64,000 nucleotides of DNA from Elsinoe ampelina (Eukaryota), in the NCBI GenBank assembly GCA_010093995.1, contig ML992508.1, forward strand, positions 840,506 to 904,505, in the 5' to 3' direction. A program made the position numbers and the translations under genes. The notes under the pieces were generated by a model. The model made no database searches, had not been told where the DNA came from, and saw nothing but the letters and a program-made list of their open reading frames with translations. This document shows positions 23,162 through 58,402 of the stretch, piece after piece. Positions within the stretch are counted from its first letter, which is position 1; each line of letters starts with the position of its first letter.

Positions 23162-24049
23162 ATGGTCTTCCACAAACTTGCAGCTCTCCTCGGGCTGCTA
23201 TCAATCTACACCCTTACTGCAGCGCAACCGCTAGACGGCTCACTGGAGAAGCGACAGGTCTACCTCACTCTCCCACCCACACCATCCCTACCAGCTCCGA
23301 TCAACACTAAGCCTTTCCGCACCTCTGACGGCGTCAACCTCTGGTTCCAGAAATACAACGAGGCAGCAGGCGGCGAACCCCTGGTCCTCATCCACGGCGG
23401 CCTTGGCTACTCCGCTTACTTCGGCGACGTGATCCGTCAGCTCTCCAAGTCCCACTACGTAATCGCCGTCGACCGCCGCGGTCACGGCCGCAGCACCTAC
23501 CTTACCACCGACAAGTTCACCTTTGACCAATTCGCCTCCGAGACCGCCGCTCTTCTCGCAGCCAACGGCGTCAAGAAGGCAAAATGGGTAGGCTGGTCCG
23601 ACGGCGCCGCGACCACGCTCGCCGCCCTTCAGAACGCGGCAATTACGCCTTCCATCTCCCGAGCGTTTGTCTTTGCCGGCTTCCAGAAACCAGAGGATAC
23701 AAACTCCACTTTCACAACGCGAGCGACGTACAAGACATTCGTCACCAGATGTGCCCAGGAGTACGCCGTCCTGCAGCCCAAGGCGAGCTTCTCGGACTTT
23801 GCGACAAAGGTGGGCACGCTGGAGGCGACGCTGCCGCAGTGGAGCGACACGCAGCTGGCGAGGATCCAGGGCAGTAAGGTGACGATTGCGGGGGCCGAGT
23901 TTGATGAGGCGGTGAACCTTGCTGTGCAGCCGCATTTGAACAAGGTGATCAAGGGGAGCAAGTTGGTCATCTTGAAGGGAGTCAGTCATTTTGCGCCGGT
24001 GCAGGATCCGGTCGGGTTTGTGAACGCCGTCGTGGCCTTTGCGAAGTAA
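23162..24049 (+). CDS. Secreted alpha/beta hydrolase (Abhydrolase_1/6 type), intronless
   Basis: ATG 23162; signal-like MVFHKLAALLGLLSIYTLTAA; Kex2-like LEKR; HGG oxyanion motif, D.RGHGRS, nucleophile GWSDG, acid DEA, catalytic SHFA. Confidence 0.9.
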   Translation: MVFHKLAALLGLLSIYTLTAAQPLDGSLEKRQVYLTLPPTPSLPAPINTKPFRTSDGVNLWFQKYNEAAGGEPLVLIHGGLGYSAYFGDVIRQLSKSHYVIAVDRRGHGRSTYLTTDKFTFDQFASETAALLAANGVKKAKWVGWSDGAATTLAALQNAAITPSISRAFVFAGFQKPEDTNSTFTTRATYKTFVTRCAQEYAVLQPKASFSDFATKVGTLEATLPQWSDTQLARIQGSKVTIAGAEFDEAVNLAVQPHLNKVIKGSKLVILKGVSHFAPVQDPVGFVNAVVAFAK

Positions 24050-24335
24050 TCTGGAGGTGTGAGATGGCCTAGCTACTTAGACTTCTTGATTAGTAGAGAT
24101 GACCTCCGGCAAGACGCATATTCCGCAGAGAAGTCCCCGGAACGATGAAGAAGTAGATTATAAGAGGAAACGCTGATGACAAGATTAAAATGGAATTGCT
24201 GATTGAATACATTTGCAGGCCTGACCAGCCTGCTTGACCTCCTCGTAAGGTCGCATACATGCCTGCTCACCATGAACCCCCAACGCCGTCCTTGCATCGT
24301 AAATTCGCGACAAAACCCAGGGTTGCTGATCCGTC

Positions 24336-25362: not shown

Positions 25363-25648
25363 TGCTGGTAGCTTGTCGTGATACAAGCGGTGGCAAGAAA
25401 AATACTGCGACCGGGGTCTCGTTGGAGGCAGTGGATTAATCTCTATCTCTGGCTGCTCTGCTCCAGAAAAATTTCGAGGTCGAGGTCCAAGCTCCGCAGC
25501 CCGCAGAATAGATTTTTGCCGGCGATTTCCCGACGCACAGTGCCAAGCTTTCGAGCCAACCCACACCAGACCTCAAATTTTGTGAAGGACAAACGACCGA
25601 TCATCACCAAAGGCAGAGGACCATTCCCACCACCCATCAACCGCAATC

Positions 25649-26291
25649 ATGGTCCGTTACGCCGCCACCGAGATTGATAACGCAAAGAGTGCCCGCGCCA
25701 GGGGCTCATACCTCCGTGTCTCCTTCAAGAACACTCGCGAGACCGCACAGGCAATCAACGGCCTTAAACTCCAGAGAGCCGTCACCTACCTCGAGCATGT
25801 CAAGGAGCACAGGGAGGCTATCCCCATGAGGAGATTCGCTGGATCAACTGGCAGGACTGCGCAGGGTATGTAGAAGTCCAAGAGACGCTGGAGGATATCA
25901 CATCGCGGCGCACGAGACACAACAGTATACTGACGCACATCAAGGCAAGCCATTCGGTGTCTCCAAGGCCCGCTGGCCAGTCAAGTCCGCCGAGTTCCTC
26001 CTCGGTCTCCTCAAGAACGCCGAAGCCAACGCCGATACAAAGGGTCTCGATACCTCCAACCTCATTGTCAAGCACATCCAGGTCAACCAGGCACCGAAGC
26101 AGCGCCGCCGCACGTACCGTGCCCACGGTCGTATCAACCCGTACATGTCGAACCCCTGCCACATCGAGATGATCCTCACCGAGGGAGAGGAGGTTGTCCA
26201 GAAGGCGTCGGATTCATTGGAGAGGAAGAACGCGCATCTCAGCAGCAGGCAGAGGGCGTCGAGGGTCAGGCGGGCTATCACCCAGGGTTAA
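25649..26291 (+). CDS. RPL17: 60S ribosomal protein L17 (uL22); exons 25649-25865, 25945-26291
   Basis: [60 protein letters not shown] intron. Confidence 0.97.
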
Positions 26292-26485
26292 GCGATGACT
26301 TGCGGACGAAGGAAAGGCAGCGAGGAGGGGAGGTGGATTCCTGTGGTCAGGGATTGCCAGAAGGATCATTTGCGATGGCGTAAAAAGGATTCTATTCTGA
26401 TCCGAATGTCTATGCTAGATGGTATCTCGCCAACAGCCCAAATGCATGGTCGTCACTGTCTCTGAAAAGCCCGGAAACCATTCTA

Positions 26486-27742
26486 TCATAATCTAGGAGA
26501 ACCCTTGCGATGTGCCGCTTTCTCCTTCTCCACTATGCTATCCGTACCTGGATTGTTGAAACTGTCGGGATCGTTCAAGAAGCTCTCATCTCCGGAGAAT
26601 TTCCTATTCGTCATCATGAGCCTGTTTTCTCCAGCATCATGTCCCGCAAGGCTTTCAAGCAGTCTTCTGAACAGAGGCAGGGGCAGGGGTAGGCACCCTC
26701 TCTTGCTGTGCGGCCAAGGTATCCTCCATGGCAAAGTTCCTGAAACATCAACACCCGAATCTTCCTGACCAAACACAAATAATCGTCATCAAGAAAAGGT
26801 TCAAACTCACCAAGTCCTCTCCTCGCCTTCCTTCAAAAAGCTGCAATCCCCATTCACCACACACTCCCAACCCCCTCCCACCCCCTCCCCCCTCCATCCC
26901 ACATCCGGCACCTCCTCCCCCTCCTTCCACTCCTTCATCCCCCCCTTCGCCTCCCCTCCCTCCCTCCTCTCAAACCTACTAAAAGCACAAGTCCCACACC
27001 TAAAATCCTCCTCCCCCTCCTCCTCAGGCATCCGCCCCGTCAGCGCCCTCCCCGCACAGATCATAACCGCAGCATGCGTGCACAACACCGCAGCCTCCAC
27101 CCCCTCCCCATCCAGCTGCCTGATGATATCCTCCAACGCGTACGCCACCCGATCGTGCAGTCCCGGGATACTCTCGCCGTTCACGCTCGGCCTGATCGCG
27201 CCTCTGTACCCCTCGTCCAGCATCCCGGGGAAATGCGTCGTCAGAACCTCCACGCTGGCGGGGATAGGGTGGTCGAAGCGCGCGAGGCCGTAGAATTCGC
27301 CTATGCCGGTGTCGATGCGGATGGGGAGGGGCGGGAGGGAGGAGGAAGCGCGGATGGCGTTGAGGGATGTGACGGTTGGGGAGAGGGTTTGCAGGCAGCG
27401 GTAGAAGGGGGAGGAGTAGATGGCGCTGATGGGGGGTTGGAGGGAGATGAGGTGGCGGGCCAGGTCGTGGGATTGTTCGACGCCGTGGCTGGCGAGGGAG
27501 GGGTCGGAGGGGATGCCGGTGGGTGTCGGGAAGGTGTGGCTGTAGGCGCCGGTTTGGGGGTTTACGACCCAGTTGGAGCGGAACTTGAGGGGGTTAGTTG
27601 GTGGTGTTGAGGAGGGGTAAGTGGAGGGAGGATTGGAGGGTTTGGAGGGGATGGAATGGCGATACGGAGGTTTTGTATGATTGGGATCATTGAGAATCGT
27701 ACTTACTCCATGTCTGACAATGTATATAGTCTTGAGCACCAT
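26486..27742 (-). CDS. Histidine phosphatase / phosphoglycerate-mutase-family protein (TFIIIC Tfc7/tau55-like), two introns
   Basis: IYIVRHG, YSSPFYRCLQT, GE.YG, LCTHAA, NGDCSFL..GEERTW|KFSGDESF; introns after RHG and at ~26604-26810. Confidence 0.85.
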
Positions 27743-28056
27743 GTTGATGTTGATGTGGTTGTGCCGAGGTTGGGAGAGAAGCCAAAGTTGTGAAAGTCAA
27801 GGTATGAAGTTTGGTACAGAAAGTTTCTGGGGAAGGAGAAATCGCATGTGACGCTGGAACAGCATTTATACGTATTGGTGACATGCAACAATGATTGCTT
27901 GGATTGCTACAGACTTGGATGTCATTGGAGACATGCATGGAGACAAACAATTGACATGCACGGAACATCTGGGGGAGGCTAAACTTTTTGATTGTTTCAT
28001 GCAGGTCATTATGCTGCCTGGGTATCTAGAAGGCAAACGCTACTGCATGCCCCTGT

Positions 28057-28753
28057 CTAGTAGAAGAAACCAATGATCTTGCCACCAGCGTGCTTTCTCC
28101 TGGCCTCCTCGTGGTCCATGATACCGGCGGAGGTGGTGAGCACAACGTAGCCGAATTGACGGGAAGGAAGAAGCTTGACGACCCACTTCTCGAGATCCCG
28201 GAGCTGGACGTTGTAGCGAGGGCTGATGACACCGGTCTTGTTGAGACTGATACACGTCAGTTTGTTAGCTTTCGTCTGCCTTTTCGCATGACTTACCGGC
28301 CGTTCAGCTGGATGACAATCTTGCCGTTCCTGTGGTCGTCGACCTCCTCGAATTCGCCAATGTAACCTGAAAGGGTATCAGTATCGCGGAAAAATAAACA
28401 TGAATCTTCATGGATGATCAGAAAACGTGTAAGTTCTCCGCCAATTTCAATCTTCCGAGCACTTAAAGGGCAGAGGTCGTGTAGTGTTATGAGACCGCCG
28501 CCTAGTTATCAACCCGGGTTTGAGATGTCTAGATGAGCTTCCTCCTCTTGCTGTGCTCCAAGTTCCAAAATATCCCAAGCGAGCTCCATTCGGAACATAA
28601 GAAAACATGGGTTGACTGACCGTGCTTCTGCATGACGCTGAGGAACTTGACAATGACCTTGGAGCTAGGCCTGATCATGACCTGGCGCTTGCCGGCCTTC
28701 TCGGCGTTGTTGATGGACTTGAGCGCATCGTTGAGGACGGAGGTGCGAGTCAT
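28057..28753 (-). CDS. RPS22: 40S ribosomal protein S22 (uS8), two introns
   Basis: [66 protein letters not shown]|..GGKIIGFFY*. Confidence 0.96.
28380..28520 (-). ncRNA. snR44: Probable intronic H/ACA snoRNA, snR44 homologue
   Basis: In the long (~250 bp) first RPS22 intron; minus-strand blocks CCGGGTTGATAACTAG, TTTAAGTG.TCGG, CTTACACG and GTTTATTTTTCC resemble, as I recall them, yeast snR44, which lies in an RPS22B intron. Boundaries approximate. Confidence 0.6.
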
Positions 28754-34572: not shown

Positions 34573-35224
34573 CCAACGTCTTCTTTTGGGATTGGGGACT
34601 CCGAGTAAGGATATGTAGGTAGAGCGATGGGAAAGACTGGGGAAGGTAGTTGTCTGCTTCCACATCTGGGAGGCTCGAGACACTTTGGTTCTCTGGACAT
34701 TTCGATTTCTTGGACAGATCAAAGCAACCACACCACAAGCGGAATGTACTATACGAAGACACGATATACGATAGACGACATAGACGACGTTTCTTAGACC
34801 TGTTTTTCCTCCCTCGCTCCGTGCCACGTATGCTGCTTCCGTTCCTCCTCGTCTTTCCTCATGGGTATTCACGTGACACCAGCACTCTTTACCATGCAAC
34901 TAGGGAATATGGTGCTACTGTGAACTGAAACGTTCATGCATCATTACCCTACCCAAAATTCTCTACAAGAAGGAAACACCCCTCGTTGCCTCACCATCGC
35001 CGACCCAAGATTCTATACAATCTCCACACGCAGCCCTTCGGACAATAAGCCCCTACGACCAACACCCCTGTCCAGCCCCCCAAGCACCCTACTCATATCT
35101 CTCCAATCCCCCATAATCAGCCCCGCAAGACCGACTTCCTATCCGTACGCCTCGTCATCCCTATTTATCCCCTCACCCTCCCCCTCCCCTCTCCTCCCAC
35201 CCCAGCACCCACCCCTCCCGGCCC

Positions 35225-46230: not shown

Positions 46231-46730
46231 TGTGCAAAGCTTTTCCCGAGTCGATGTGACAAGCGAATTGCTGCCCTCAACCTGGTTGCCACCCGATCAT
46301 CACCCAGGTCCCGAAGATCATGACAGTGCTATTGAGGGTGATCTCGAGGGCAACCTGGCCAATGGCAGAATAGAGGGAATATATACAACCATGATGTCAG
46401 TGCTGTGCATAATGGACGGGCGGGAAATGAGGTCTGCGCTGGCAATTGAGGCATGTGATAGCTCGACCAAAACCTTCCCACAACCTCATCTCACGCAAAC
46501 CTTTCCAAAAAACCCTCACAACTATCACCAGCGCAATCACAGATACCACGCGATCAATCAATCACATACATACAATCACGCACGTCGTAGAAGCAATCAG
46601 TCATACCATCCGTAAGTACCTTTTATCATTTCTCACGCCTTTGCCGCCGCCGCTGGACCTCGCCGCTGGAATTCACATACCACACCACTCACATCGGACT
46701 CACCTGAACTCACCTGGACACTCGGACGAC

Positions 46731-47417
46731 ATGGCTACCTCTCCAGACGCCCCTCGTATCGACCTCCCCCTCCGCTCCTCCTCCTTCGGCTCCTGGTACC
46801 GCATCCCGGACACCATCCCGTCCGCCGCTCCTTCCACCCCTCCCGCCACCTCACCACCATCCAACCCGCCCCCCTCCCCCGCCCTCACCTTCCGCACCTC
46901 CTCCTGGCGCACCGCCTCGGGCTCCTCCGCCGTCTCCTCGGTCAGTCTCGACCTGGCCACTCTCCGCCCCTACCGGGCGACCAACTATCCTCCGTTCGCC
47001 GGGGACGAGGAGTTGGGCGGAGAGGGGCACAGAGGCGGGGAGGAGCCGCCGCCTTATTTCGAGGGGTTCGACGGGGGGCCATACGTGAGTGAGGAGGAGG
47101 TGAGCGCGCCGGCGCCAGTGCGGGAGCAGAGAGAGGGGAGGAAGCCGGAGGAGGGCTTGGGCGAGGTGCTGGCGAGGCCGTGGACGAGTATGTCCACTGT
47201 TGCGTTGGGGGAGACGGGGAGGTGGGAGCGGAGGATGAGGGTGAGGGCGGAGGTGGAGGAGGAGTTTAGGAGGAAGCAGTGGGGGTTAAGGGGGAAGGAG
47301 GAGGGGAGGGAGGAGAGGCAGGAGGTGGCGAGGGAGAGGGGGAGTGGTGGGGGGAGAGCGTGGTGGGATGGGAGGGGGAGTGGGTTGGGGGAGCTGGTGG
47401 AAGAGGGGGAGAGGTGA
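46731..47417 (+). CDS. Hypothetical low-complexity protein (228 aa)
   Basis: ATG 46731 in a long open frame; P/S-rich then E/G/R-rich; contains PPPY; no family recognised. The open frame may partly reflect base composition. Confidence 0.5.
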   Translation: MATSPDAPRIDLPLRSSSFGSWYRIPDTIPSAAPSTPPATSPPSNPPPSPALTFRTSSWRTASGSSAVSSVSLDLATLRPYRATNYPPFAGDEELGGEGHRGGEEPPPYFEGFDGGPYVSEEEVSAPAPVREQREGRKPEEGLGEVLARPWTSMSTVALGETGRWERRMRVRAEVEEEFRRKQWGLRGKEEGREERQEVARERGSGGGRAWWDGRGSGLGELVEEGER

Positions 47418-47777
47418 GTGGTGGGCGGAGGGCGAGAGGAGGTGTACGATACCGCTGGGGCGAGCAAGATTCTACCAGATGGCAAGGGGTCTGGTAGTAA
47501 TTGCCGCGAAGAAACTACCACGCGGGCAGCCTTTTTTTCGACGAAATTTGTATACTACCAGGTCATGGGGCAGGCGCGACTTCTGTTTAGCGAACACCGG
47601 CAGGTGCGACTTGAGCACCACTATCAACACTTTTCAGCGGACGAATCTTCGACTTTGAGTCTCTTTCTTCTCAACATTGCATCCGACCATAGTCACTCGT
47701 TTGACTCCGCTTCCTGCAGCATCATCAGACTGAATACCTCCTCCATCGAATACCATCCAGACATCATCACCAGCAAA

Positions 47778-48506
47778 ATGCGTGGATCAATCCTCTTCAG
47801 CTTGGCTGTTTTCGCCGGCTTCGCTGCAACCCAGAACGCTACCATTACCAGAGTCGAGACTACATACACCACGACCACTATCTGCCCAGTCACCACCACC
47901 AGCATCAATGGAGGATCTACCACCGTCGTCACCACTCTTACCACCAGCACTCTCACGGTCACCTCCTGCCAGTCCGGCTGCGATATCGACACCAGCGGTC
48001 CAGAAGCGACAGCCACGGCCAGCAACCCCATCCTCTATCTTCCAGTCCCCATCCCTCGCACCGAGACGTCCATCATCACAGACACCGAGACTCGCACCAT
48101 CACCAACTTTGTCCCCTCCTCCACCTTCGTCACCACCATTGGTCAGAACACCTTTTTCTCCACTTGGGTCAACATCGTCTACAATACCGTCACCGAGATT
48201 GTCACTCGCACAGCGTACGAGACCTTCTTCCCAACACCGACTGTCGTCCCGACGAGCTCCTGCCCTCAAGATGTTGTCTGCGAGACTATCACAGCTTCAG
48301 GTGTCCCTCCAGTTCCTACAGTCACGATCACGGGCAGTTACGAACCAGCGACCAATACTCCCATCCCACCCAACGCCGCTCCGAGCTATCCCATTTCCAG
48401 CTTTCCAACTCCGAACATTTCCACTGGTGGCTTCCCCACCAATCCAGGTCCTATTCCGACAGGTGCTTTTCCTTCTGGCGTTCGACCTCGAGCTTTCTAC
48501 CTGTGA
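47778..48506 (+). CDS. Secreted Thr/Pro-rich (mucin/cell-wall-like) protein
   Basis: MRGSILFSLAVFAGFAATQ signal; YTTTTICPV and TVTSC..GC fungal cell-wall-protein motifs. Confidence 0.8.
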   Translation: MRGSILFSLAVFAGFAATQNATITRVETTYTTTTICPVTTTSINGGSTTVVTTLTTSTLTVTSCQSGCDIDTSGPEATATASNPILYLPVPIPRTETSIITDTETRTITNFVPSSTFVTTIGQNTFFSTWVNIVYNTVTEIVTRTAYETFFPTPTVVPTSSCPQDVVCETITASGVPPVPTVTITGSYEPATNTPIPPNAAPSYPISSFPTPNISTGGFPTNPGPIPTGAFPSGVRPRAFYL

Positions 48507-49039
48507 GCTTCAAGGTCACCTCAACAGCGAGACTTTACGGAGCAGTATCAACATGGCATCGACTATTGGCAGCTCCGGCACTTGTGCAGGAGGTGTGAAG
48601 GACCCCGGAGCATACCTTGGTGATGCTTGAGCATGAATATGGCGAGGATAATGCAGGTGTAATGGAGGAGTAATACAAGCGGCGGACAGAAGGCGACCAG
48701 CCAGCCCAAGAGGCATATTGTGCATAGCTATACAACATGCAATGGACCAATGCTCCACGTCCACTGTCTCCTTCCTTGTGCCTTGTTTTTGCATAGATTG
48801 CTCGAAATGTGAAGCATGAACTCTCCTCCGAGGGCAAGCTCCACAATCGGCGGTTTCGTGTTCTGATTGGTCGGCTGACTCGAGACGCCATTTCCGCCGC
48901 AACAGCAAACACGCACCACAACCTCAACCTCGTACACCATTTTTCCAGCCCAGTCCACCACGCTCGCTTCCAACACTCGCTGACGACTTTCTACTACACC
49001 TGCGCACGTCGCGCTTGATCTTGCAACACGATCGCAACC

Positions 49040-50240
49040 ATGTCGGCCCCCAGCACAGCGCACATCGAGCGCAACCGACTCCCCAACCTCTGGGAAGTGC
49101 TATCACGCACAACCAAAGCCCCCGTCGACCTCTACTCCTTCTACATCTACATGCGCGACACGCAACGGTCCGTCGACTACCTCGACTTCTGGCTCGACGT
49201 CTCCCAACACATGTCGCTGTGCCGACACTACGTACGCGGACTCCGGCGCTCGGTCCTCATCGACACCCCGGACGCCGCCTCGAAACGCTCCTCCGCCATC
49301 CTGGGCGACTACCCGGACACGTCCTACATGGGACCCAGCTACACGGACCGCGGGCGCGACGACAGCGTCGCCGGGCCCAGCACCTTCGAGCGCAAATCCA
49401 CGTCGGACCAACGCCTGTCGGCCTTCCTCCGCGAAAACGGCACCGGCATCAAGCACTCGCCCACCAACTCGCGAGGCAGCGCGAACTCCAACGAACCCAC
49501 TCCCCCCTCGGAGCAACCCCCTCGCCCCTCCTTCATGGCCTCCTCGCAGTCCGGCTCGCCCGCCAACGAAAGCAGTCCCGGCACGTCCAACGTCGGCCGC
49601 GCAGACATTCGCGCTTCGGCGGAGAAGATACTCTACACGTACCTGCTGGCCGGGAGCGAGAGGGAGATTATACTCCCCGTGGGGATACTGGACGATATCA
49701 CAATGGCGATTGAACGGGACGGAAGGGATGATCCCGAGGTGTTTGACGCGGCGAAGGATTACGTGTTCCAGGCGATGGAGAGGGATGCGTTCCCTGGTTT
49801 CTTGAGGATGAAGGCGTTGGGGAACGTGGTGCAGCCTGGGATGTTGCTCAGGTTGATCGCGGGGTTGGTGAGTTTGTTCGCGGCGTTCTGGACGGGGTTT
49901 GTCTTGATTTTTCTGGATTATGGGAGGGGGACGAGGTGTTGGGTAAGTCTGAAATATTCCCGCTGTCTCTCGCTCGAGGGGTTTTCGGACTGACCGGGTG
50001 TAGCTTGTTCTGCCTTTCCTGGCGGGGATTTACTTCCTCGCTTCGCATCAGTACATGCTGGATCCTCTACTCGCCCTGGTTGGGTACTCGGAGTACACGT
50101 TCATGCACTTTCAGCGTGTCAAGGAGCCGTTTGTGCGGAAGCTGCTCAACAAGCGCGCGCTGATGTGTCTGGGAGTCATCTTCTTGATCACGGCTGCGTT
50201 GTGTCTGCTTTTCATATTGGTTCCGGGCAAGAGGCTGTGA
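49040..50240 (+). CDS. RAX1: Rax1, RGS-domain bud-site/polarity protein (exons 49040-49942, 50004-50240)
   Basis: RLPNLWEVL.R.T..PVDL.SFYIYMRD.QRSVDYLDFWLDV; GRDDPEVFD.AKDYVFQAMERDAFPGFL; three C-terminal TM helices ending VPGKRL*. Confidence 0.93.
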
Positions 50241-50650
50241 CACAGCTATGATCGGAGAAGACGAAACAAGGGTTGAGGGCCGGACAGGCTTGCTGTATAA
50301 TTTAGGATATCATCATATGCGGTGCGAGCATGGCGTTTGGACACGGGAATACCTATCTTGATGGATACGGGGATCTTGAGGGCTGGATCTGTTTGCATAC
50401 TATGCAATTAATGACACAATGTGGACATCATCGTGGAGGAAGAAGTGCAAGTGACTGGCACGTTGAGTACCCCGATATAACATTACACAAGCAAAGCCCC
50501 CGAAGGGCTGAAAGGCTACTGTCGCTCACAGCGACCAAAGCGCAAGATGAATTCCTAGAATATCCTCCCAGCAATGCCTTTTGGATCATCCCCAAACGCC
50601 ACGCTCTCTCGACTGGTTCGAGCACTATTAATTGTTTGTCGACAATGAAA

Positions 50651-52421
50651 TCAAAGCTCCGACTGTGCAATTCCCAAGGCAGCTTTGACTGCTTGAGCAC
50701 CTTCCTTGCCCGATCCTTTACCTGCTGCAAGAATACCGAATCGAAGGAAGACTTCAGAGCAGGTGACCAGGATGGAAATGATGATGAGAACGATGATGAT
50801 CCATGTGATTCCTGGAAACGGTTAGACATGGTCAAGGACAGAGATGGGGGGAGATGTTACTGGTCATCTTCGTGTCCGCTATGCTGTCTGATAAGATCTC
50901 GGCGAGGTCAAGGAAGACTCTGCATCGCTCGTTGAGGACTTGAATGCGGGGCTTGATCTCGAGATACTCTCGAACAGCGGCGTAGAGTGGGTGTAAAGTT
51001 GGTTCGGAGTCCCAGAAGAAGTTGGGAGTGTCGAGCATGTTGGACGCTATTGGCGTGTCAGTACTGTCATGAGAAGAGGTTAGGGGATATTTACAGAGGT
51101 TCACGTCCACTCTACCTTCGAATAGCTTGCCGACGAGAGTGACGACTTCGGTCCTGCTCATGCCCAATCTGCCTTCCAGGGCTAGCTTGCGAGGGACGTA
51201 TTGCGCTTCACTCATAGTGCGTGCCATGCGCTCTTCGAAGAAGGAGAGCTTGGTGCTTTGACCAATGGCGTGGCTCATGGCCAGCTTTATCATGTGGTCG
51301 CTTGTTCTGAGCGTAATCATGTCATTGAAAATGCGCGGCTTTTCCACTTCGCGGTTGTATTCGAAGTGGAACTCTTCCGTCTCAAAGTCGGCCTCAGTCA
51401 GAGGTTTCGTCAGGAGTGGTGCCTTCGTCAGACCTGTGTAAGGAGAGTTGCGTAGTTGGTCGAATTTGGCAGCCTGTACGCTGGACGAAGAGGAGAACGT
51501 GAGATCCGCCAGCATGTCCTTCTCTTGGTGCTCGGTAAAGTTCCAGAAGACTGCAACACCATAACTGAAGATGAATAGCTCTGCCGCCATGGTCGCATCA
51601 GGGGCAATGGGAGTTCTCGGTGAAGGATAGTCGAGCGAGCTGGCATTGCTAGGCCGTCGTTCGTCCCTGTCATCGTACTGCTCAGCTTGTCTTTCCGGCT
51701 CTTCCTGGCGGGTCTGATCTGGCGACATTTGTCCCTCATTACCAATGACAGAGTATTCGGCGTGTTCGTCTCGCCATCCTTCCCTGTATGCTCGGCGCTC
51801 GTTCATCTCGATCTGCTCGTCCAGAACACTTTGGCCGCCAGGGTTCTTCAAGACCGGACTGCTTCTTATCCTATAGCCGTCGCTACCCCCTAAAAGTGGC
51901 AGTTGGTAGACGCAGTATAGACAATCGTCGTATAGCTTAGTCTTCGCGCCGTGCTGATCTCGGATAAACTCTGCCGTTGTCCTCAGCTTGAAACTTTGTG
52001 CTGTACAGTATGCTGTGACTCTTGCGAGTTTATCTGCTCGCCTTGCCTTTGGTAATCGTTCAGCATAACTCTTACTCCCATGTCGGCCTTTTCTCTTCCT
52101 TGCAGCAATCTCCTCGTCGTTGGGCGGTGCGCTGTCGTCATCCTCACCAAGCTCTGATCTATCGTCGGGTGGAGATCCAGGGTCGGGGATAAGCACAAGC
52201 TTCTCGCTGACTTTACTTGTTCGGGCAGGAATATGTCCAGAAGGTATGGGTAATGGACGTCCAGAGAGTTTTGGATCCAGAGGATGTCTGCCGCTGGGTG
52301 TTCGGTGGTGGACGAGAGGTCGACTGCCGGGCGTGACTCGTCTTTGCGCCGAAGGAATTTCGGAAGCGTACTGGAGGACATTGTCAACGGATATTATCCT
52401 TGTATTCTGTCGAGTCATCAT
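50651..52421 (-). CDS. RMD1/RMD8 family (DUF155) protein, two introns
   Basis: RVTAYCTA, FIFSYGV.VFWNF, ETEEFHF, PRI.ND.ITL, SHAI.QS.KL..FE, YLEI.PRI.VLNERC, C-terminal TM ITWIIIVLIIISI. Confidence 0.92.
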
Positions 52422-54078
52422 ATTCGAAGGTCGCGGCGGTTGACGCCATGGCGTTTCACGTGCATCCGTTACCTATTTGATTAGTAGGCTGTCCATCTGC
52501 AGATGTTGTTTCCATACCAGCACGGTCGGGCCACGCTTCTTGCCCTGCGGCGCCGACATGTTGGGCACCATGTCTTGTAGCGATTGGGCGCGTGCTATCG
52601 GACACTTGAGAGGATCATGCTGTTGTGTAAAGTTGCAGGACCGGCCGAAGTGCAGAGAGGGAAGAGGGTGAGCTGTCAGTGACACCTTGGCAATCTGCGG
52701 AGGAACTTCCATTGACATCTGCAAATTGACGTCACCCTGCTTGACTTTAAGCAGTGGAGAACCTCATGCTCGCCACGTGGCAGGTTGGAAGGTTCATGGA
52801 CACGGAAATTCAAGTCAACCAGTACACAAGTGCTACTTGATTCTACAAAGTGCAATTGTGATTCGCGTACATGTGTATCTTGCACAGATCCGGCCTTCGC
52901 GTCTTGTGCCGAATGTCGACCTGACCTACCAAAGATTGGAATGGAAGTCGCGTAGCGCAAGGATAGGCCAGGGAACTAGCTACATGCGAGACGAAGAAGG
53001 TGAAGCTACCGAGACAAATGCAAGATCTCTGATGACAGCAAAGTCCATCGTGGTCCTTCTTTCGCAAAGTTACCGTGCCTGATATTCGTCCTAGACGATC
53101 CAAGCAGCAGGATCATAGCTCAGCATCGATCCGATCCTGCCAGCGCGACCTTGGATGACATGTCAACATTAGTAGTGGTCCGAACTGATGGAGATAGAAA
53201 TGTAACACTGACCTGGGAAAAGGGTGACCCAAGTGTAGTCCTCGTCAGAGTAATCGGAATCGAATGGAACCCTTTACCCATGACCAGTCAAGGTCATGAG
53301 CTCAAGGCACGCCGCGTATTGCACTAAAGTATCTTGCCGTAGCAAATACAATCTTCGCACCAGCTCCCATAGGAACCACGACAAGCGTAGTCCTGAGTTT
53401 CTGATGCCGGTAGCGGGCGTGTTCACGCCGTGCGGTCACCCGCAGTGGCCAGTGGCAGCCGGATCCTGGGTAACAGCGAGGGCGTTGCATGGCAGAAGGT
53501 GAAGATTACTCCGAATTTCTCATTTGCTTGAATGACGAGAGCAAGCTCTGTCTGTGTGGGAGCAAAGAAACGCAGCGTTGACGAGGACGACACTTGGGTG
53601 AAGAAGGAAGAGAGAGGTCGGGGTGAAGCTGAAGATTTGATACTGTGCGGAGCGAGTCATGGTCTTGGCAATTGGTCATCGGAGATACACTCGCTCACTT
53701 CGTTGCCTGCTTGTTCTTGACATTGACAATGGCAATCACAATTGATCACAGTCCCCGTCACATCGACCCACCAAGCTGCATCAAGCACATTCTGCATCAG
53801 CGATTGCGACGAGTCTCTGAGAGAATGAGCTGGACTTCATGGGCCAGCATCCCTGGTCGAGCCGGGGTTTCAGGTCCTTCCGTGCCGCCCTCTCCTGCAT
53901 CTCACACTGTCGCGATCCATGTCTTTCCCTGCTCACAGCACGCTTGGTCGACTGCATACTGCACGGTCCACAACCATTGACCGGATGACCCCCGAAGACT
54001 TCGACCAACAGCGGACGCCAGCGGTATCGCTCTGTCCAGGATGACTTCCCCGCAGATTTGGAATCCTAAGATCTTGAC

Positions 54079-54764
54079 CCGAGGCACATTCTCGACCCCT
54101 GGAGATGACAGGACGCCGGATCCATACACCCATACCCCACTGTGGACATGCAGGTGCAGGTGACCGATGGTACCTGTCAAGCATGACCGAATCATGGCTG
54201 ACGCAAGGGGAGCTTGACAGGGACAAGCAATCCAAGCTTTCTAGGCCTCGGTATGTAACGGACAATTCTTTTTGCTTTCCTTCCACTCCTTCTCATGACC
54301 ATCCTTCCCGAGTCTGCATGCTTGACCGCGTGATCAGTGCAATTTGCCAACAACGGACAATGACCCCGCAATTTTCTGCAAGAGCACGACCGAGGACATG
54401 GATGAGCATGCATCTCAGGCCAGACTCCAACTACTTTTGGGATGTGCAGGTTGGCGTCTCCAAGCTTTGTGGAGCCTGATGCGTGACACTGAGTCTTTAA
54501 TATACCTGCAGTGACAGCTTGTGGCTTGCGTGGGGTAGCATTGCTGCATGATGCCTGTTCAGCTTCACTTCCTGAAACCGAGGCCTGCTTCCCATGTGGT
54601 GGTCGGGGTAGTATCTGCTTCAAGATCCCTCGGTATCTTGAGGCCTTTGACAGTATCTACTATTGATCACTGCAGAATGGTCCGACAAGCTGCATGAGGT
54701 CCTCTTATACCGCGGCATGATCGTGTTGGACCATAGCATCGGGCAAGCCTGAGACGTCTATAAA
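54079..54764 (+). promoter_or_regulatory. Cutinase promoter: five CCTCGG/CCGAGG (FarA/CTF1-type) sites, several SYGGRG (CreA-type) sites, TATAAA at ~54759
   Basis: Sites at 54079, 54246, 54390, 54578 and 54628. Confidence 0.6.
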
Positions 54765-54861
54765 GACCGTAGACTTGTCAGCTCAAACGTCTTGCATCTC
54801 AGCATCTCAAGACACTAGCCAAGCTACTTCTCACATCACTTCAACTACCAGTGTCGCCAAC

Positions 54862-55613
54862 ATGAAGTTCACCACCGCTTTCATCGCCCTCTTCGCGGCT
54901 GTCAACGCCATGCCCACCGCCGATGCTGAGGCTGAAGCCGTCGCCGAGTTCTCCAAGCTCGAGCAGCGTGCTCAGCTCGAGACCCGCGCCACCGGCAACA
55001 CTGTCAACGAGCTCGCCAATGGAGCTTGCCGCGCCGTGACCTTCATCTTTGCTCGGGCTTCCACCGAGACAGGCAACATTGTATGTTTCCATCACTTCTC
55101 CTGCTTATCCATTTCTAACAACATCAGGGCTCTTCAGTCGGACCACCAACATGTGACGGCCTCAAGTCTCGCCTCGGCGCCAACAACGTTGCGTGCCAGG
55201 GTGTCGGTGGACCTTACTCCGCCGCACTTGCCGACAATGCTCTCCCATCCGGAACCACGCAAGCCGCCATCAATGAAGCTGCTCGCCTTTTCACTCTCGC
55301 CACCACCAAATGCCCCAATACAAAGATCGTCGGTGGCGGCTACAGCCAGGGCGCAGCTGTCATCCACGGCGCAGCCAAGACACTGTCTTCTGCCGTGCAG
55401 AACAAGGTCGTCGGACTCATCACCTACGGCGATACAAGGAAGGCTCAGGACAATAACCGCATCCCTCCCTTCCCGGCATCCAAGACTCAGATCTTCTGCA
55501 ATGCTGGAGATGGTGTTTGCGTCGGGACTCTGGTCGTCACTGCTGCTCATCTTGCTTACCAGGGATCTGTCAACCCAGCTGTCAACTTCTTGGTTGGTAG
55601 AGTCAACGCTTAA
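54862..55613 (+). CDS. Cutinase (CE5), secreted; exons 54862-55080, 55128-55613
   Basis: Signal peptide; C..V.FIFARASTE.GN, GYSQG, C..GD.VC.G......H..Y. Confidence 0.96.
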
Positions 55614-55891
55614 GCGGCGGTTACCTACCCAAGCCGTGAATGGAAAAGTCTACGATGACCGGTGAAAAATCTCTGATAGCTTCTTGTCTACAAATTGAAT
55701 GAATCCATGTTCGATGCTTGCAATCCAATCCTCTCCCGCCTGTCAATCCCCTCATGCACCAATCCTACCCCTGGTGACAACCTTCCCGTGGCAAAGCCCC
55801 CAACCCCATGATCAATCTTCAGCCAAAACCCCCACCCCTCGCCCTTCAATTCCCCATTTCCCCTCCCTATCCCCCTCACCCCCTCACCCCC

Positions 55892-58402
55892 TCACCCATT
55901 CCCTCCCCCCCCTCCTCCCTCCCTCCTACTCCCCACCATCCTCAACCCCACCTCCAAAGTCCCCGGCCCCTTCAACCCCCTCCTCCCCTCCCCCACCACC
56001 TCCCACCCCTCCGGCACGTTCACCTCAACCTCCGTGCCCCCGGGCACCAAAACCTCCACCCACCCCCCCTCGAACCCCTCCCCCCACTCCACCCTCACCC
56101 CCACTGTACCGGCGACCGTCTCCATCTCCACCTCCACCTTCCTCACCCCCGCCACGACGGGCGCGACTTCCCACTTCTTCCACCCTGGGGACGTGGGGCG
56201 CAGACCGGCGAGGTATTTCGGCAGGAGAAACACGGGGCCAGTGGACCAGCCGTGGCAGAGGGAGGTGTCGTCGTGCGCCGGGACGAGGGTGGGCGTCGAC
56301 GACTCTGGTGTCGTGGGCGAGGTCGAGGACGAGGGGCCGGGAGAGGGGGAAAGGGTGAGCGCTTCCCAGAAACAGCCCGAGTAGTTCGGGTCCGAGGGGC
56401 GGGTCATTGGTTCCCAGACTTTTTTGATGAGGGAGATGGCGTCGGGACCTTTCTGTGTGGCGAAGAGGGCTTCGGCTGCGAAGGAGGAGGTGAAGGGGGA
56501 GATGAGGTTGGGGGGGAAGGGTGGGGTGGAGGGGAAGGCGGGAGGTGGGAAGGGGGAGGTGGGGTTGAGAAGGGGGAGGTGGGACGGGTGAGACGGGAGG
56601 AGGCCGAGGAATAGGGCGTGGGAGAGGGATTGTTGGGTGTAGGAGGGGAGGAGGGTGGAGGGGGTGAGGAGGCCGGTTTTGGGGTTGTGAAGGTGGGTGA
56701 GGATGGAGGTGGAGAGGGTGGTGGCGAGTGCGTTGAATGGAGTGGTGGAGGTAAGGATGCATTCGGACATGTGGTACATCGAGCATAGTGCCTGGTAGTA
56801 GGCGAGGTTGATGTGCGTAGCGGGCCCGAAGATGGGGCCGCCGAGGGGGAGGAAAGTGAGGGAGAGTGGTGGCGGGGCGTCGACAAGACCTTGGTGGTTG
56901 ATATGGGATTGGACAAAGTCGATGAACTTGCAGAGTTTGGGCCAGACTTGTTGGACCGTGTCGTCGTCGCCAGTGTGGAGCCAGTAGTCTTTGATGGCAA
57001 TCACCAGTAAGAGGGCGTACTCGAGCGAGTAGAACGCATAGGTTGGGACCTCTTGATGCTCGTCATGCAGAGGTGCTTGAATAGGACAGAGATTCCCAAG
57101 ATAGCCATCCTTGGTCTGATGACTCGATAACAAGTCGATACTACCCTTCACAGCCTCCATCTGCGCAGTCGAGTATGCTACAGCTTGTCCCAGAATGAAA
57201 AGATCGCCGCCAAACACAGATCGGTCTCGCTTGGCTCCGTCAATCGTGCATGCCACAGTGTTTGTTCCCACACCGAAGTCCAGCATTGTCCTGTCTTGCT
57301 CGGCCGATGTTAGTGGGTTCCTGTACAGCTCATTGCCGTCCAAGCCATGGACGGCGAGATCTCGATAGTCAGTGACCCATCCGGCAGGTCCTCCCAGAGC
57401 AATAGAGCCCGTGTTGTTGGATGCTCCTCCGAGGAGGGGGTGAATGTCTAGGTCGTAAAGTGTTGTGATTGTCCTACCATCAATCACCACAGTCGCTGAA
57501 CTACCAGAAGTCTGCACCAATACCGAGGTCCAGTCCTGAAGACTGATGTTGTAGGGTAATGCCCACTGACCGCGCAATTTCGATGGAAAGACGCTCGATT
57601 TATCCGCCAGTCCTTCAAAGGCTTTAAGCTCTCTGGTAGTGACGTCCAGGCAGAAGATGAGACCATTTGCCACCATGTGGATCCCCCAGCTGGCTCCTCC
57701 CTGATGAATTTTGACCTGGAAACGAACGACTTTGTCTGCCCAACGGGTGCCATGCCGGCATGGAGCCCAATGCTGACCATAGACTCTGGTACGGTCTTCC
57801 AGAAAGTCCCATGCAGGTTGTGTCTGCCCCTTCTCGACTGTACACTTGTCGACAGTACGCAGTCCGTGCTCCCAGATTTGCGTGAGTACAGGATCCGAAC
57901 AACTGAATCGACACTTTGACTCATGTCCAGATCGGAAAGGCATGAGGCCAATAGCGTCGAAGATGAGCGAGCAATGTGTCGATAAGAGTATGATTTTCTG
58001 GTATCTCAAAGAGCCTTGCGAAAATCGAGCTTCATAGTATCGACTTTCGGACGATGTTGGAACGGTGTACTCGATACTACGATAGGTGTCCATCGCATTC
58101 GAAAAGAGGAAGTATGGGCCATCGCCGTCTGCCTTGTCAATCCCCTCTCGTGTCTCGCTGTATACTATTCGGAATTTGATGTGCCGTCGACTATCTGCCT
58201 GACATCGTATACCAAAGACGGGATATCCACCTTCGGCTCGGCCATAGTCAAGAATGATCTCGGACTGGTGACTTGCATTGACGATGGTCAAGCATTTCGT
58301 CTCCGAGACGCTTACCAGGCCCTTGAAAGCCAATATGTCAACCGGTTTTGTGTATGATGCATGTGGTGGCCAACAGGATTTCAAATGCGGCGATAAGATC
58401 AT
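55892..58402 (-). CDS. Alpha-L-rhamnosidase, GH78 (no signal peptide, single ORF 836 aa)
   Basis: ILDYG...GG, F.CSD..L..IW, DGAKRDR, Y...TGD, G.FWE, SLCHGWS.GP. Confidence 0.88.
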   Translation of the reverse strand: MILSPHLKSCWPPHASYTKPVDILAFKGLVSVSETKCLTIVNASHQSEIILDYGRAEGGYPVFGIRCQADSRRHIKFRIVYSETREGIDKADGDGPYFLFSNAMDTYRSIEYTVPTSSESRYYEARFSQGSLRYQKIILLSTHCSLIFDAIGLMPFRSGHESKCRFSCSDPVLTQIWEHGLRTVDKCTVEKGQTQPAWDFLEDRTRVYGQHWAPCRHGTRWADKVVRFQVKIHQGGASWGIHMVANGLIFCLDVTTRELKAFEGLADKSSVFPSKLRGQWALPYNISLQDWTSVLVQTSGSSATVVIDGRTITTLYDLDIHPLLGGASNNTGSIALGGPAGWVTDYRDLAVHGLDGNELYRNPLTSAEQDRTMLDFGVGTNTVACTIDGAKRDRSVFGGDLFILGQAVAYSTAQMEAVKGSIDLLSSHQTKDGYLGNLCPIQAPLHDEHQEVPTYAFYSLEYALLLVIAIKDYWLHTGDDDTVQQVWPKLCKFIDFVQSHINHQGLVDAPPPLSLTFLPLGGPIFGPATHINLAYYQALCSMYHMSECILTSTTPFNALATTLSTSILTHLHNPKTGLLTPSTLLPSYTQQSLSHALFLGLLPSHPSHLPLLNPTSPFPPPAFPSTPPFPPNLISPFTSSFAAEALFATQKGPDAISLIKKVWEPMTRPSDPNYSGCFWEALTLSPSPGPSSSTSPTTPESSTPTLVPAHDDTSLCHGWSTGPVFLLPKYLAGLRPTSPGWKKWEVAPVVAGVRKVEVEMETVAGTVGVRVEWGEGFEGGWVEVLVPGGTEVEVNVPEGWEVVGEGRRGLKGPGTLEVGLRMVGSRREGGGGGGNG

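Follow-up and report, generated by a model that had tools for sequence, protein, structure and literature searches.

The question raised by this locus is why the + strand of a 64-kb stretch of Elsinoe ampelina DNA (the window) switches repeatedly and abruptly from C-rich to G-rich sequence, and whether the switches belong to fixed sites on the chromosome or to the genes in which they lie. The first-pass annotation had described these switches and read them as gene-independent replication origins or break/resection hotspots. Our analysis confirms the switches and supports the overall interpretation only in part. Using skew, (G-C)/(G+C) on the + strand in 400-bp flanks, we found five strong flips, at 27250 (-0.58 to +0.61), 35540 (-0.45 to +0.40), 47000 (-0.51 to +0.66), 49600 (-0.29 to +0.34) and 56190 (-0.75 to +0.52), together with a weaker one at 23780 (-0.21 to +0.27) and a weak one at about 26180 (-0.09 to +0.13). 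The five strong flips and the one at 23780 are hosted by GC-rich segments of 1.0-1.5 kb, with a GC content of 0.62-0.70 in the blocks, and of 0.62-0.67 at the five strong flips, versus 0.54 across the gene island. The sign change is completed inside one 100-bp bin (at 56190, for example, from -0.56 to +0.34), the amplitude reaches ±0.9 per 100 bp, and at the lobe maxima one base makes up 64-68% of a 100-bp bin with its complementary base at 2-4%. The biggest step in 200 shuffles inside 1600-bp blocks was 0.71; observed steps of 1.27, 1.19, 1.17 and 0.85 are all larger, whereas the step at 49600 (0.63) stays below this maximum. Third-codon-position change points fall at 23771, 27253, 35326, 47007, 49616 and 56185, at most 20 bp from the coordinates annotated before (except in the arrestin gene), and the third-position switch is complete within about ten codons. 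Six steps of reverse polarity, of at least 0.6, exist as well; four of them are the outer edges of the C-to-G blocks themselves and two (34800, 47570) are junctions of adjacent genes. These data come from 14 usable genes in a single gene island of 36 kb.

Errors in assembly or base calling, or long hairpin or foldback elements formed by true inverted repeats in each block, have practically no probability as the source of the flips, and we rejected both. RNA contigs do break and mis-join within the tracts, with two runs fusing 46844 to 56073 and loose contig ends at 47207, 56094-56154 and elsewhere. However, spliced RNA contigs from three independent studies cover the blocks with at least 99% identity, a match with which the artefact reading fails, and a single contig crosses the entire 49600 block with 0-1 differences. 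Besides, reading frames stay open and Pfam domains are retained through the flips, and the same amino-acid shifts occur in orthologues of independently assembled Elsinoe species. Brief stretches of 70-80% complementarity are present between the arms, but the actual sequence folds little better than arm-wise shuffles of it (five sites, z between -3.1 and +0.8) and the longest arm pair is at most 47 nt at 70%.

The genes that carry the blocks had been called correctly, as judged by Pfam. On the + strand, the alpha/beta-hydrolase gene (CDS 23162-24049) contains a weak block at 22980-24179, its coding strand being C-rich over 22980-23779 (skew -0.12 to -0.38) and G-rich over 23780-24179 (+0.17 to +0.38). 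A very weak version is found in the + strand gene for ribosomal protein L17 (RPL17; Ribosomal_L22; 25400-26600, stop 26291), which is faintly C-rich and then G-rich around the stop codon, with +0.16 and +0.27 in its two 150-bp flanks. The strong block of the Tfc7-like histidine phosphatase gene (- strand, 26750-27949, flip 27250-27253) spans almost the entire gene, for which we propose a model with an ATG at 27742, the true stop at 26655 and putative introns at 27584-27706 and 26740-26810; in + strand terms, C-rich 26750-27249 is the G-rich 3' lobe of the gene and G-rich 27250-27949 its C-rich lobe. The arrestin/Bul1-like gene (- strand, ORF 35225-36967) has a strong block in its 3' part (34940-36439), where the + strand is C-rich over 34940-35539, including 285 bp past the ORF stop, and G-rich over 35540-36439; here the flip lies at 35540 from all bases and at 35326 from third positions. 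A low-complexity + strand ORF (46731-47417) is covered by a strong block at 46500-47499 (C-rich 46500-46999, G-rich 47000-47499, flip 47000-47007) with a third-position G fraction (G3) of up to 0.88. The block in the RAX1-like RGS gene (+ strand, ATG 49040, RNA-supported intron 49943-50003, stop 50240) is moderate and occupies 48910-50010 (C-rich 48910-49599, G-rich 49610-50010, flip 49600-49616). The strongest block (55690-57089, flip 56185-56190) comprises the final 1.2 kb of the GH78 alpha-L-rhamnosidase gene (- strand, ORF 55892-58468) together with 200 bp of 3' flanking sequence. Its C-rich part on the + strand, 55690-56189, corresponds to the G-rich lobe of the gene, in which the conserved C-terminal domain is encoded; its G-rich part, 56190-57089, corresponds to the C-rich lobe of the gene.

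Viewed on the coding strand, all six flips run from C-rich to G-rich. Since a C-to-G junction is its own reverse complement, the shared polarity in + and - genes is uninformative. The flips had been placed mid-gene or near the 3' end, yet all six lie 270-630 bp upstream of the stop codon, and in every case the G-rich lobe has its outer edge between -230 and +285 bp from the stop. The upstream C-lobe is longer than the G-lobe in four of the five strong blocks, with one tie (threshold 0.2), an asymmetry that tracks the orientation of the gene. A weak form of the pattern is widespread: of 14 genes, 10 have a coding-strand skew of +0.15 or more over the final 150 bp of the CDS, 12 a positive skew over the 150 bp that follow the stop, and 13 a negative skew 600-900 bp upstream of it. 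The RdRP, amylase, fibrillarin and RPL17 genes show this weak version at their 3' ends, and the statement that neighbouring genes lack the skew is therefore only partly true. By the criterion of the first-pass annotation, switch points that track a fixed relative position in genes, this anchoring counts against gene-independent initiation sites.

The skew had been expected to persist at silent and intronic sites, and this is what we observe. Across the flips, third positions change from a C fraction of 0.6-0.8 to a G fraction of 0.7-0.88. At fourfold sites, C occupies 446 of 700 positions in C-lobes (64%) and G 224 of 340 in G-lobes (66%), compared with 479 C and 271 G among 1409 control sites. 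Among NNY codons, the share ending in C is 0.91 for C-lobes, 0.47 for G-lobes and 0.62 for controls; among NNR codons, the share ending in G is 0.37, 0.95 and 0.60, respectively. The two putative phosphatase introns contain 7 G and 55 C, and 21 G and 7 C, and the 3' flanks of the GH78 and arrestin genes have skews of +0.73 and +0.75. Thus, amino-acid demand does not drive the skew, which is strongest at fourfold sites and includes introns and 3' flanks. Ten RNA-supported introns outside the blocks have the same default sign on the coding strand (G 68, C 123; A 102, T 101). A and T are lost equally in the lobes, and their counts on the G-rich strands agree (998 versus 996). The underlying process acts on nucleic acid rather than on protein and behaves on the coding strand like an "any base to C" pressure upstream of the flip and an "any base to G" pressure downstream, with GC increasing to about 0.65-0.70. 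The predicted G-quadruplex potential on opposite strands around the flips is also borne out: all 16 clusters of canonical G4 motifs in the window lie inside lobes, eight on the + strand right of a flip and eight on the - strand left of one.

Protein alignments show that the pattern is common to Elsinoe relatives and missing in outgroups, and that it has forced amino-acid replacements. For GH78 we used a protein-level index, the G-minus-C content of codons derived from a protein alignment. In the window species and in E. batatas and E. fawcettii it runs at about -0.6 to -0.8 and then switches to +0.8 to +0.9, confirming that the flip position is conserved; E. australis is intermediate and seven outgroups mostly range from -0.3 to +0.45. 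Scored against the outgroup majority residue, replacements in the GH78 C-lobe are 49 to C-rich versus 6 to G-rich codons, compared with 37 versus 28 in a 5' control region. In the phosphatase, the corresponding numbers are 17 versus 6 in the C-lobe and 4 versus 24 in the G-lobe. Judged from these alignments, the pressure is strong enough to change residues in conserved enzymes. The last 110 residues of the arrestin provide weaker, alignment-free evidence: the window protein scores +0.50, whereas three relatives range from -0.07 to +0.24 and the other eight sequences from -0.32 to +0.10. A related species in run X12 has about 90% identity to the flanks and no alignment of at least 85% over 55646-56669 in the strongest block, which indicates fast, indel-rich evolution there.

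We consider it probable that the blocks belong to transcription units and represent a known pattern of fungal genes, made extreme in a subset of genes and given a sharp boundary. In fungal genes, the coding strand is described as having a C bias at its 5' end and a G bias at its 3' end, a skew that reaches UTRs and fourfold sites with A and T nearly constant, in a set including two Dothideomycetes (McLean and Tirosh, 2011, BMC Genomics, PMC3315797). The species set of that paper contains neither Elsinoe nor other Myriangiales. The blocks match this description in having a C-biased 5' end or body and a G-biased 3' end including UTRs, in affecting fourfold sites and amino-acid usage with hardly any change in A and T, in concerning a subset of genes, and in a positive skew linked to the stop codon rather than the poly(A) site. 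They differ in amplitude, as the published curves are averaged gene-wide trends and we see up to ±0.9 per 100 bp, with one base taking up 64-66% of fourfold sites. GC rises locally in the blocks, whereas skew and GC content are negatively correlated in the published data, and in long genes the extreme zone is confined to the last 1.2-1.5 kb, unlike in the described pattern. Against our explanation, the flips are abrupt (at most 100 bp) and the published pattern is a gradual, linear gradient; such a boundary would fit a point source, a break site or an origin, more naturally. In addition, extremes are confined to 4-6 of 14 genes, in the two long genes the strong C-lobe begins only after 1.3-1.5 kb instead of at the 5' end, and the stop codon coincides with the G maximum in only four of six genes.

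A point source is nevertheless unlikely, whether it is a replication origin or a break hotspot; 3'-end anchoring in six of six genes and weak copies in most genes leave fixed, gene-independent sites unsupported. Fixed bidirectional origins with a leading/lagging-strand mutation bias on either side are a very improbable source, even if the flips are sharp and share the negative-to-positive polarity on the reference strand with bacterial oriC, mammalian skew jumps and yeast centromere-linked origins. Those switches extend over tens of kb or more, whereas here the skew is transient and baseline is regained within 0.4-0.9 kb without persisting to a next terminus, and the spacing of flips equals the spacing of genes. 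To our knowledge, all reported eukaryotic replication skews are far smaller than the 0.9 per 100 bp reached here. Replication skew also pairs G with T, in contrast to the equal A and T of the lobes; this equality argues likewise against deamination of resected strands, as both processes predict an AT skew. Fixed meiotic hotspots would combine recurrent double-strand breaks with strand-asymmetric mismatch repair or error-prone fill-in of resected strands, which would raise GC and leave skews of opposite sign on the two sides, each about one resection length long. This would agree with sharp, near-symmetric flips, lobes of 0.4-0.9 kb, the GC maximum at the blocks and the rapid, indel-rich evolution at 55646-56669 in the X12 relative; we still regard it as quite unlikely. 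Exposed single strands are expected from the yeast and human literature to lose cytosine, so resection should leave C-poor 3' tails, but here the 3'-ending strands that it would lay bare are rich in C, contrary to such a loss. Fungal breaks usually occur at nucleosome-free promoters and not in conserved exons, where these blocks lie. In Zymoseptoria tritici, another Dothideomycete, exons do hold 1435 of 2578 hotspots, but GC-biased gene conversion is described there as "extremely weak or absent" and sister species share only 6% and 20% of hotspots (PMC5844332), unlike the family-wide conserved position found here.

Another reading shares the 3'-end anchoring with our main explanation and takes the blocks as an adaptive signal: selection would keep gene-body RNA poor in G, so that R-loops and local structure are avoided, and would keep the final few hundred bases rich in G; the G-rich end would cause a polymerase pause, an R-loop or a G-quadruplex and thereby termination before a close neighbour, the block acting as a two-way terminator between convergent genes. 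The CTP-economy idea of McLean and Tirosh is a variant. The next gene is indeed 227-653 bp away from all six genes and convergent in five, a strong block occurs in just one partner of each of these five convergent pairs, all G4 clusters lie inside lobes and the position is kept across Elsinoe relatives. An RNA contig that joins the RAX1-like gene to DUF155, its convergent neighbour, suggests overlapping transcripts, although a two-gene contig is no proof of them. Human genes with close neighbours also have terminal GC skew co-oriented with transcription and 3' R-loops (Ginno et al., 2013, Genome Res, PMC3787257). The two cases are alike in their positive skew at gene ends, the enrichment where a neighbour is closer than 2 kb and a G-rich RNA expected to form termination-aiding R-loops. 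Human skew, however, increases at the annotated 3' end and falls off 1-2 kb further on (PMC3787257); here it starts within the coding region, ends at most 300 bp from the stop and is accompanied by an equally strong opposite lobe upstream. Selection for such a signal seems unlikely to us: the pattern overrides the protein sequence of conserved domains (49 versus 6 replacements), which resembles blind pressure rather than a tuned signal, many genes (fibrillarin, DUF155 and ORF 54862-55665) are equally close to neighbours yet have no block, and 66% of one base at silent sites far exceeds the need of known terminators.

In their architecture, a block of about 1-1.5 kb and 65-70% GC with a CpG-rich centre, a mid-block sign flip and G-rich strands running outward on both sides, the segments resemble mammalian GC-skewed bidirectional CpG-island promoters (in part after PMC3787257). 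Unlike these, they lie in 3' coding exons. Fujimori and colleagues are said to have found, in 2005, a C-rich coding strand at fungal transcription start sites. The sign at fungal start sites is likewise given as opposite, with a C-rich coding strand, by McLean and Tirosh (PMC3315797).

For the transcription-linked pattern that we favour, a tentative mechanism would be strand-specific mutagenesis of the unpaired strand, possibly via R-loops. In yeast, Rev1/Pol zeta inserts C opposite abasic sites, and the T>G and A>C changes that result depend on transcription (Owiti et al., 2018, PLoS Genet, PMC6063437). Of the two classes, only T>G, which originates from the non-transcribed strand, becomes more frequent when RNase H is lost. 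As described there and in work cited there, uracil/cytosine excision followed by C insertion turns "any base to G" when it happens on the non-transcribed strand, and R-loop accumulation boosts the effect on the unpaired strand only. By analogy, G-rich RNA would form R-loops, abasic sites on the displaced strand would be bypassed with C inserted opposite, and the displaced strand would thereby gain G, making the RNA more G-rich still; such feedback could push some gene ends to the extreme and sharpen the boundary. The fourfold spectrum of the G-lobes (G up; C, A and T down; A about equal to T) fits this route, although the yeast result comes from a reporter gene in repair mutants and is not an evolutionary footprint. 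The route alone leaves the C-rich lobes and the ordinary C-bias of gene bodies unexplained, the latter being opposite to the outcome expected from the yeast rule, a gain of G by the non-transcribed strand, if sense transcription acted alone. The upstream lobe would have to be a mirror image, produced by antisense or read-through transcription of the close, mostly convergent neighbour, and the model thus requires antisense transcription across the C-rich lobes. In the phosphatase and RAX1-like genes, the G maximum stops at the last intron.

The + strand of the gene island, a 36 kb stretch with a GC content of 0.54 (22400-58800), turns abruptly from C-rich to G-rich at 27250, 35540, 47000, 49600 and 56190, with a step in skew, calculated as (G-C)/(G+C), of 0.63-1.27 between the 400-bp flanks. 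A further flip at 23780 is weaker and one at ~26180 is very weak. Windowed skew, third codon positions and RNA contigs bear out the recurring switches that had been described in the first-pass annotation of this DNA. All statistics are drawn from this one island with its 14 genes. The block around each flip, made up of a C-rich and a G-rich lobe, extends over 1.0-1.5 kb with a GC content of up to 0.62-0.70, and the sign of the skew switches inside one 100-bp bin and, at third codon positions, within ~10 codons. At the lobe maxima one base accounts for 64-68% and its complement for 2-4% of a 100-bp bin. Shuffling of the DNA within 1600-bp blocks (200 trials) yielded a largest step of at most 0.71, which is surpassed by four of the five strong blocks but not by the step of 0.63 at 49600. 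The asymmetry of the lobes is one of G against C alone, as the G-rich strands of 12 pooled lobes contain 998 A and 996 T (AT skew +0.001). All 16 clusters of canonical G-quadruplex motifs in the 64-kb window are located inside the lobes of four blocks, eight on the + strand to the right of the flip and eight on the - strand to its left.

Spliced RNA contigs of three runs, each from a different study, agree with the region at an identity of at least 99%, and one of them covers the entire 49600 block; being unstranded, they have no bearing on antisense transcripts, transcript ends or expression level. These contigs, together with the orthologue evidence, rule out an assembly artefact. An inverted repeat or foldback element is ruled out as well: the arms are complementary in composition only, with best complementary arm pairs of 17-47 nt at 70-90% and folding energies near those of arm-wise shuffles (z from -3.1 to +0.8). 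Homopolymer slippage as the origin of the G-richness was also rejected, given that G runs are no longer than composition predicts (mean run 2.00 versus 2.06 expected; 200 versus 209 expected runs of at least three). The centres of two blocks (27150-27300 and 56150-56330) have both G and C in abundance and are CpG-rich, and it is there that the proteins have their most conserved motifs, GEFYGLARFDHP in the Tfc7-like phosphatase and DTSLxHGWST..LLPxYLAG in the GH78 rhamnosidase.

Silent sites, introns and 3' flanks all carry the sign of their lobe, and the skew is therefore independent of amino-acid demand. Third codon positions show a C3 of 0.60-0.82 and a G3 of 0.02-0.14 before the flip, and a G3 of 0.56-0.88 and a C3 of 0.00-0.32 after it. 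At the fourfold sites of the six flip genes, C makes up 446 of 700 in the C-rich and G 224 of 340 in the G-rich lobes, with A and T declining together; control coding regions contain 271 G, 479 C, 331 A and 328 T at 1409 sites. Likewise, the fraction of NNY codons ending in C is 0.91 in C-rich lobes, 0.47 in G-rich lobes and 0.62 in controls, and that of NNR codons ending in G is 0.37, 0.95 and 0.60, respectively. Translational selection fails for the G-rich lobes, because the controls favour C over G at fourfold sites, and C-to-T deamination is rejected as the chief driver because A equals T. The coding strand of phosphatase intron 1 (27584-27706), which was deduced from canonical splice signals and agrees with the aligned annotated E. 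ampelina protein, has 7 G and 55 C, and that of intron 2 (26740-26810) has 21 G and 7 C. Directly 3' of the stop codon, the skew over 150 bp amounts to +0.73 (GH78) and +0.75 (arrestin). Codon positions 1 and 2 are also shifted, so that the proteins are rich in Ser/Thr/Pro/Leu and then in Gly/Glu/Val/Arg. Hence, the underlying pressure works at the level of DNA or RNA rather than protein, is strand-specific and raises G or C at the cost of the other three bases.

The same polarity in + and - genes had been taken as a sign that the flips are independent of genes. However, a C-rich/G-rich junction is its own reverse complement and looks identical from either strand, which makes this polarity uninformative. 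Along the coding strand, each of the six blocks is C-rich first and G-rich thereafter, and the flips of the hydrolase, phosphatase, arrestin, ORF 46731, RAX1-like and GH78 genes are situated 274, 595, 315, 417, 630 and 298 bp upstream of the stop codon, a closeness that speaks against gene-independent sites in all six cases. For this comparison, stops were corrected for terminal introns (phosphatase 26655, RAX1-like 50240). By a rough estimate based on ~16 stops in the 36-kb island, about one randomly placed point in four would come similarly close to a stop, from which we infer, rather than from a computed test, that six out of six is unlikely by chance. The outer edge of the G-rich lobe falls between -230 and +285 bp from the stop in all six genes, with the G-rich maximum at or near the stop in four and ending at the last intron in the other two. 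Among the five strong blocks, four have their longer lobe upstream and one is a tie (three, one tie and one reversed under a stricter threshold), and this length asymmetry tracks gene orientation. The closest neighbour of the six flip genes is 227-653 bp away and convergent in five cases, the sixth flip gene being located upstream of the promoter of a tandem gene. Only two steps of reverse polarity have genuine opposite lobes, and both are found at gene junctions, exactly as the gene-anchored reading predicts: the one at 34800 separates the RdRP and arrestin genes, which face each other tail to tail, and the one at 47570 separates the end of a + gene from the body of the gene that follows it. 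The pressure is thus anchored to the ends of transcription units.

A weak form of the C-then-G pattern is nearly universal in the genes of the island. In stop-aligned genes, the coding-strand skew of the last 150 bp of the CDS is at least +0.15 in 10 of 14, and the first 150 bp after the stop are positive in 12 of 14, the exceptions being EMP70 and ORF 54862-55665, whose 3' flank is the GH78 lobe. Between 600 and 900 bp upstream of the stop, 13 of 14 genes are negative (all except fibrillarin). The coding strand of ten RNA-supported introns outside the strong lobes holds 68 G, 123 C, 102 A and 101 T.

This fits a pattern that, in the accessible text of its description, has the same sign in most of about 60 fungal genomes, affects fourfold sites and amino-acid usage while A and T barely change, ties the G bias to the stop codon, is significant in a fraction of genes only, and has a cause undecided between mutation pressure and CTP economy (McLean and Tirosh, 2011; PMC3315797). 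As far as this text goes, the Elsinoe blocks share the C-biased upstream part and the G-biased 3' end (six of six), the reach into fourfold sites and 3' flanks, and the near-constant A and T. In contrast, they lack the gradual (linear) change towards a G maximum at the stop, and they differ from the pattern as published there by a higher amplitude, a sharp boundary, a local rise in GC and confinement to the last 1.2-1.5 kb of long genes. Because the change is abrupt and not gradual, we regard them as an extreme variant and not as a plain member. In human genes, co-oriented terminal skew goes along with close neighbours and 3' R-loops, according to the part of the study available (Ginno et al., 2013; PMC3787257), and both the co-oriented 3' skew and the close neighbours of such R-loop terminators recur here for all six G-rich lobes. 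Our search for literature on Elsinoe GC skew, or on filamentous-fungal GC skew with R-loop mapping, retrieved no description, and the word "skew" is absent from the main text of the E. fawcettii genome paper. In sum, the blocks are a family-specific variant, extreme in degree and with sharp borders, of a fungal gene-composition pattern that is known but lacks an explanation.

Relatives provide insights into the age of the blocks. As a protein index, each residue was scored by how far G exceeds C at codon positions 1 and 2. For GH78, which shares 81% identity with E. batatas and 63% with E. fawcettii, this index drops to -0.66 and -0.80 in E. ampelina before climbing to +0.93; E. batatas and E. 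fawcettii are similar and E. australis is intermediate, while seven outgroups range from -0.23 to +0.32 in the C-lobe bins and from +0.11 to +0.44 in the last, G-lobe bin. Counted against the outgroup majority, 49 replacements in the GH78 C-rich lobe are toward C-rich and 6 toward G-rich codons, compared with 37 and 28 in the 5' control part and with 4 and 7 in the G-rich lobe, which has few usable columns. The phosphatase counts are 17 versus 6 in the C-rich and 4 versus 24 in the G-rich lobe, and its shift is common to four Elsinoe/Sphaceloma relatives, with Myriangium being intermediate. Outgroups of the arrestin align to the N-terminal 53-60% only, and an alignment-free comparison gave a weaker result. 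The shared shifts indicate that the blocks have held their position since before the species split, pushing conserved proteins in the direction of the skew, and that the pressure is stable across the history of the family. A DNA contig from a related species with ~10% divergence aligns in the flanks of the strongest block, and 55646-56669 itself does not align at 85% or more. This stretch shows replaced segments and loose ends in that contig, and the GH78 C-rich lobe carries a 20-residue Ser/Pro/Thr-rich insertion in E. ampelina and E. batatas that is absent from nine others. Besides substitutions, the lobes seem to accumulate indels.

As a possible mechanism, transcription-linked lesion bypass comes into consideration. 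In yeast, the available text of Owiti et al. (2018; PMC6063437) reports that Rev1/Pol zeta put C opposite abasic sites, that the resulting changes depend on transcription and that R-loop accumulation raises them on the unpaired, non-transcribed strand only. At fourfold sites of the G-rich lobes, G is up and C, A and T are all down, with A about equal to T, a spectrum that would be the outcome expected from such abasic-site bypass. G-richer RNA could form more stable hybrids and make the process self-feeding, which would leave some gene ends extreme and others weak and would sharpen the boundary. For the C-rich lobe, a mirror process driven by antisense or read-through transcripts may be envisaged, and one RNA contig that bridges a convergent pair hints at overlapping transcripts without proof. 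However, lesion bypass fits poorly with the C-bias of ordinary gene bodies. Taken jointly, these elements would describe "skew dipoles" that reinforce themselves near the 3' end (the last 1-1.5 kb) of some Elsinoe-family transcription units. In each dipole, two zones would lie back to back, with either DNA strand being G-rich toward its own 3' side. Such dipoles might arise through R-loop-linked G gain on the displaced strand where sense and antisense transcription converge, stay at an unchanged codon for as long as the family has existed, serve as two-way terminators and be strong enough to rewrite conserved enzyme sequence. We put this joint reading forward tentatively, as it is unlikely to be right as a whole; evolutionarily fixed break or replication initiation sites within 3' exons would be a less likely alternative to it.

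A selective origin, with R-loops avoided in gene bodies and used for termination at gene ends, accounts for the same 3'-end anchoring but less well for the damage to protein sequence, and we consider it rather improbable. Fixed meiotic break sites at the flips would agree with the sharpness, the symmetry and the GC peak of the blocks, and not with their anchoring to stop codons. Breaks and resection are expected to leave a loss of C with a gain of T on the exposed 3'-ending strands, mirrored about the break. In the blocks, the 3'-ending strands that resection would expose are the C-rich ones instead of being depleted in C, and A and T are equally frequent. Moreover, GC-biased conversion is extremely weak or absent in Zymoseptoria and hotspots are poorly conserved between sister species, as stated in the accessible part of that study (PMC5844332), and both points add to our doubts, so that meiotic breaks appear quite improbable. 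Replication origins match in sign only: the skew should persist toward a terminus and the lobes fade after 0.4-0.9 kb, and G should couple with T, which is at odds with the AT skew of +0.001 on G-rich strands. Origins are therefore hardly credible as an explanation. Of the initial interpretation, the origins and break hotspots are mostly unsupported, and what stands is that the skew is not amino-acid-driven and that G-quadruplex motifs occupy opposite strands on either side of the flips.

Why fungal genes have opposite GC skews at their two ends has been an open question since 2011, when the pattern was described. Whereas most species yield a slight mean trend across thousands of genes, individual Elsinoe genes suffice to reveal it: the boundary can be localized with a precision of a few codons, and at silent sites a single base makes up as much as two-thirds of a lobe. 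This would make Elsinoe a natural system for determining which process, be it transcription, R-loops, lesion bypass or recombination, imprints strand asymmetry on genes. The blocks also show a non-adaptive or nucleic-acid-level pressure that replaces dozens of residues in conserved enzymes, a point to bear in mind when protein evolution and low-complexity tails of these plant pathogens are interpreted.

On the practical side, the tracts seem to upset gene prediction and transcript assembly in Elsinoe. The public GH78 model of the window ends ~30 codons ahead of the ORF stop (55892-55981), the E. ampelina phosphatase model (26807-27050) is without 14 residues (the WKEGEEVPDVGWR region) and the last exon, and the arrestin model is labelled "partial" with 57% of the ORF (35225-36904); gene callers seem to be tripped by the skewed tracts. 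In two runs, RNA contigs join the C-rich lobe of ORF 46731 (46844) directly to that of GH78 (56073), and many contigs break within lobes, with loose ends at 47207, 47296, 56011-56154 and 56518. The low-complexity tracts have words in common with each other and probably also with further such tracts elsewhere in the transcriptome. One contig (48956-52469) runs from the RAX1-like gene (+) via 50003-50810 into the convergent DUF155 gene (-), an arrangement suggestive of transcripts that overlap at their 3' ends, a two-gene contig alone being no proof.

Regarding the gene content of the island, Pfam confirmed the earlier gene calls: an alpha/beta hydrolase (+), fibrillarin (-), ribosomal protein L17 (+), the Tfc7-like histidine phosphatase (-), an RNA-dependent RNA polymerase (RdRP, +), the arrestin/Bul1-like protein (-), EMP70 (-), an alpha-amylase (-), the RAX1-like RGS protein (+), DUF155/RMND1 (-) and the GH78 rhamnosidase (-), which are accompanied by a low-complexity ORF (+) and a Thr-rich ORF (+). 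The gene at 47778-48506 encodes a small protein that is rich in Thr and Ser, has a hydrophobic segment at the N-terminus (MRGSILFSLAVFAGFAA...) and returned no match in a Pfam search. Its coding strand is C-rich throughout (third-position skew about -0.5 to -0.7), and the CDS has no G-rich lobe. The island is bordered by AT-rich blocks at 1-22400 (GC 0.31) and 58800-62400 (GC 0.39), in which TpA/ApT is 2.0 and (CpA+TpG)/(ApC+GpT) is 0.18-0.42, compared with 0.57 and 1.24 in the island. Measured against the usual thresholds of these dinucleotide indices, the AT-rich blocks carry the signature of repeat-induced point mutation (RIP), which points to a sexual history of the fungus.
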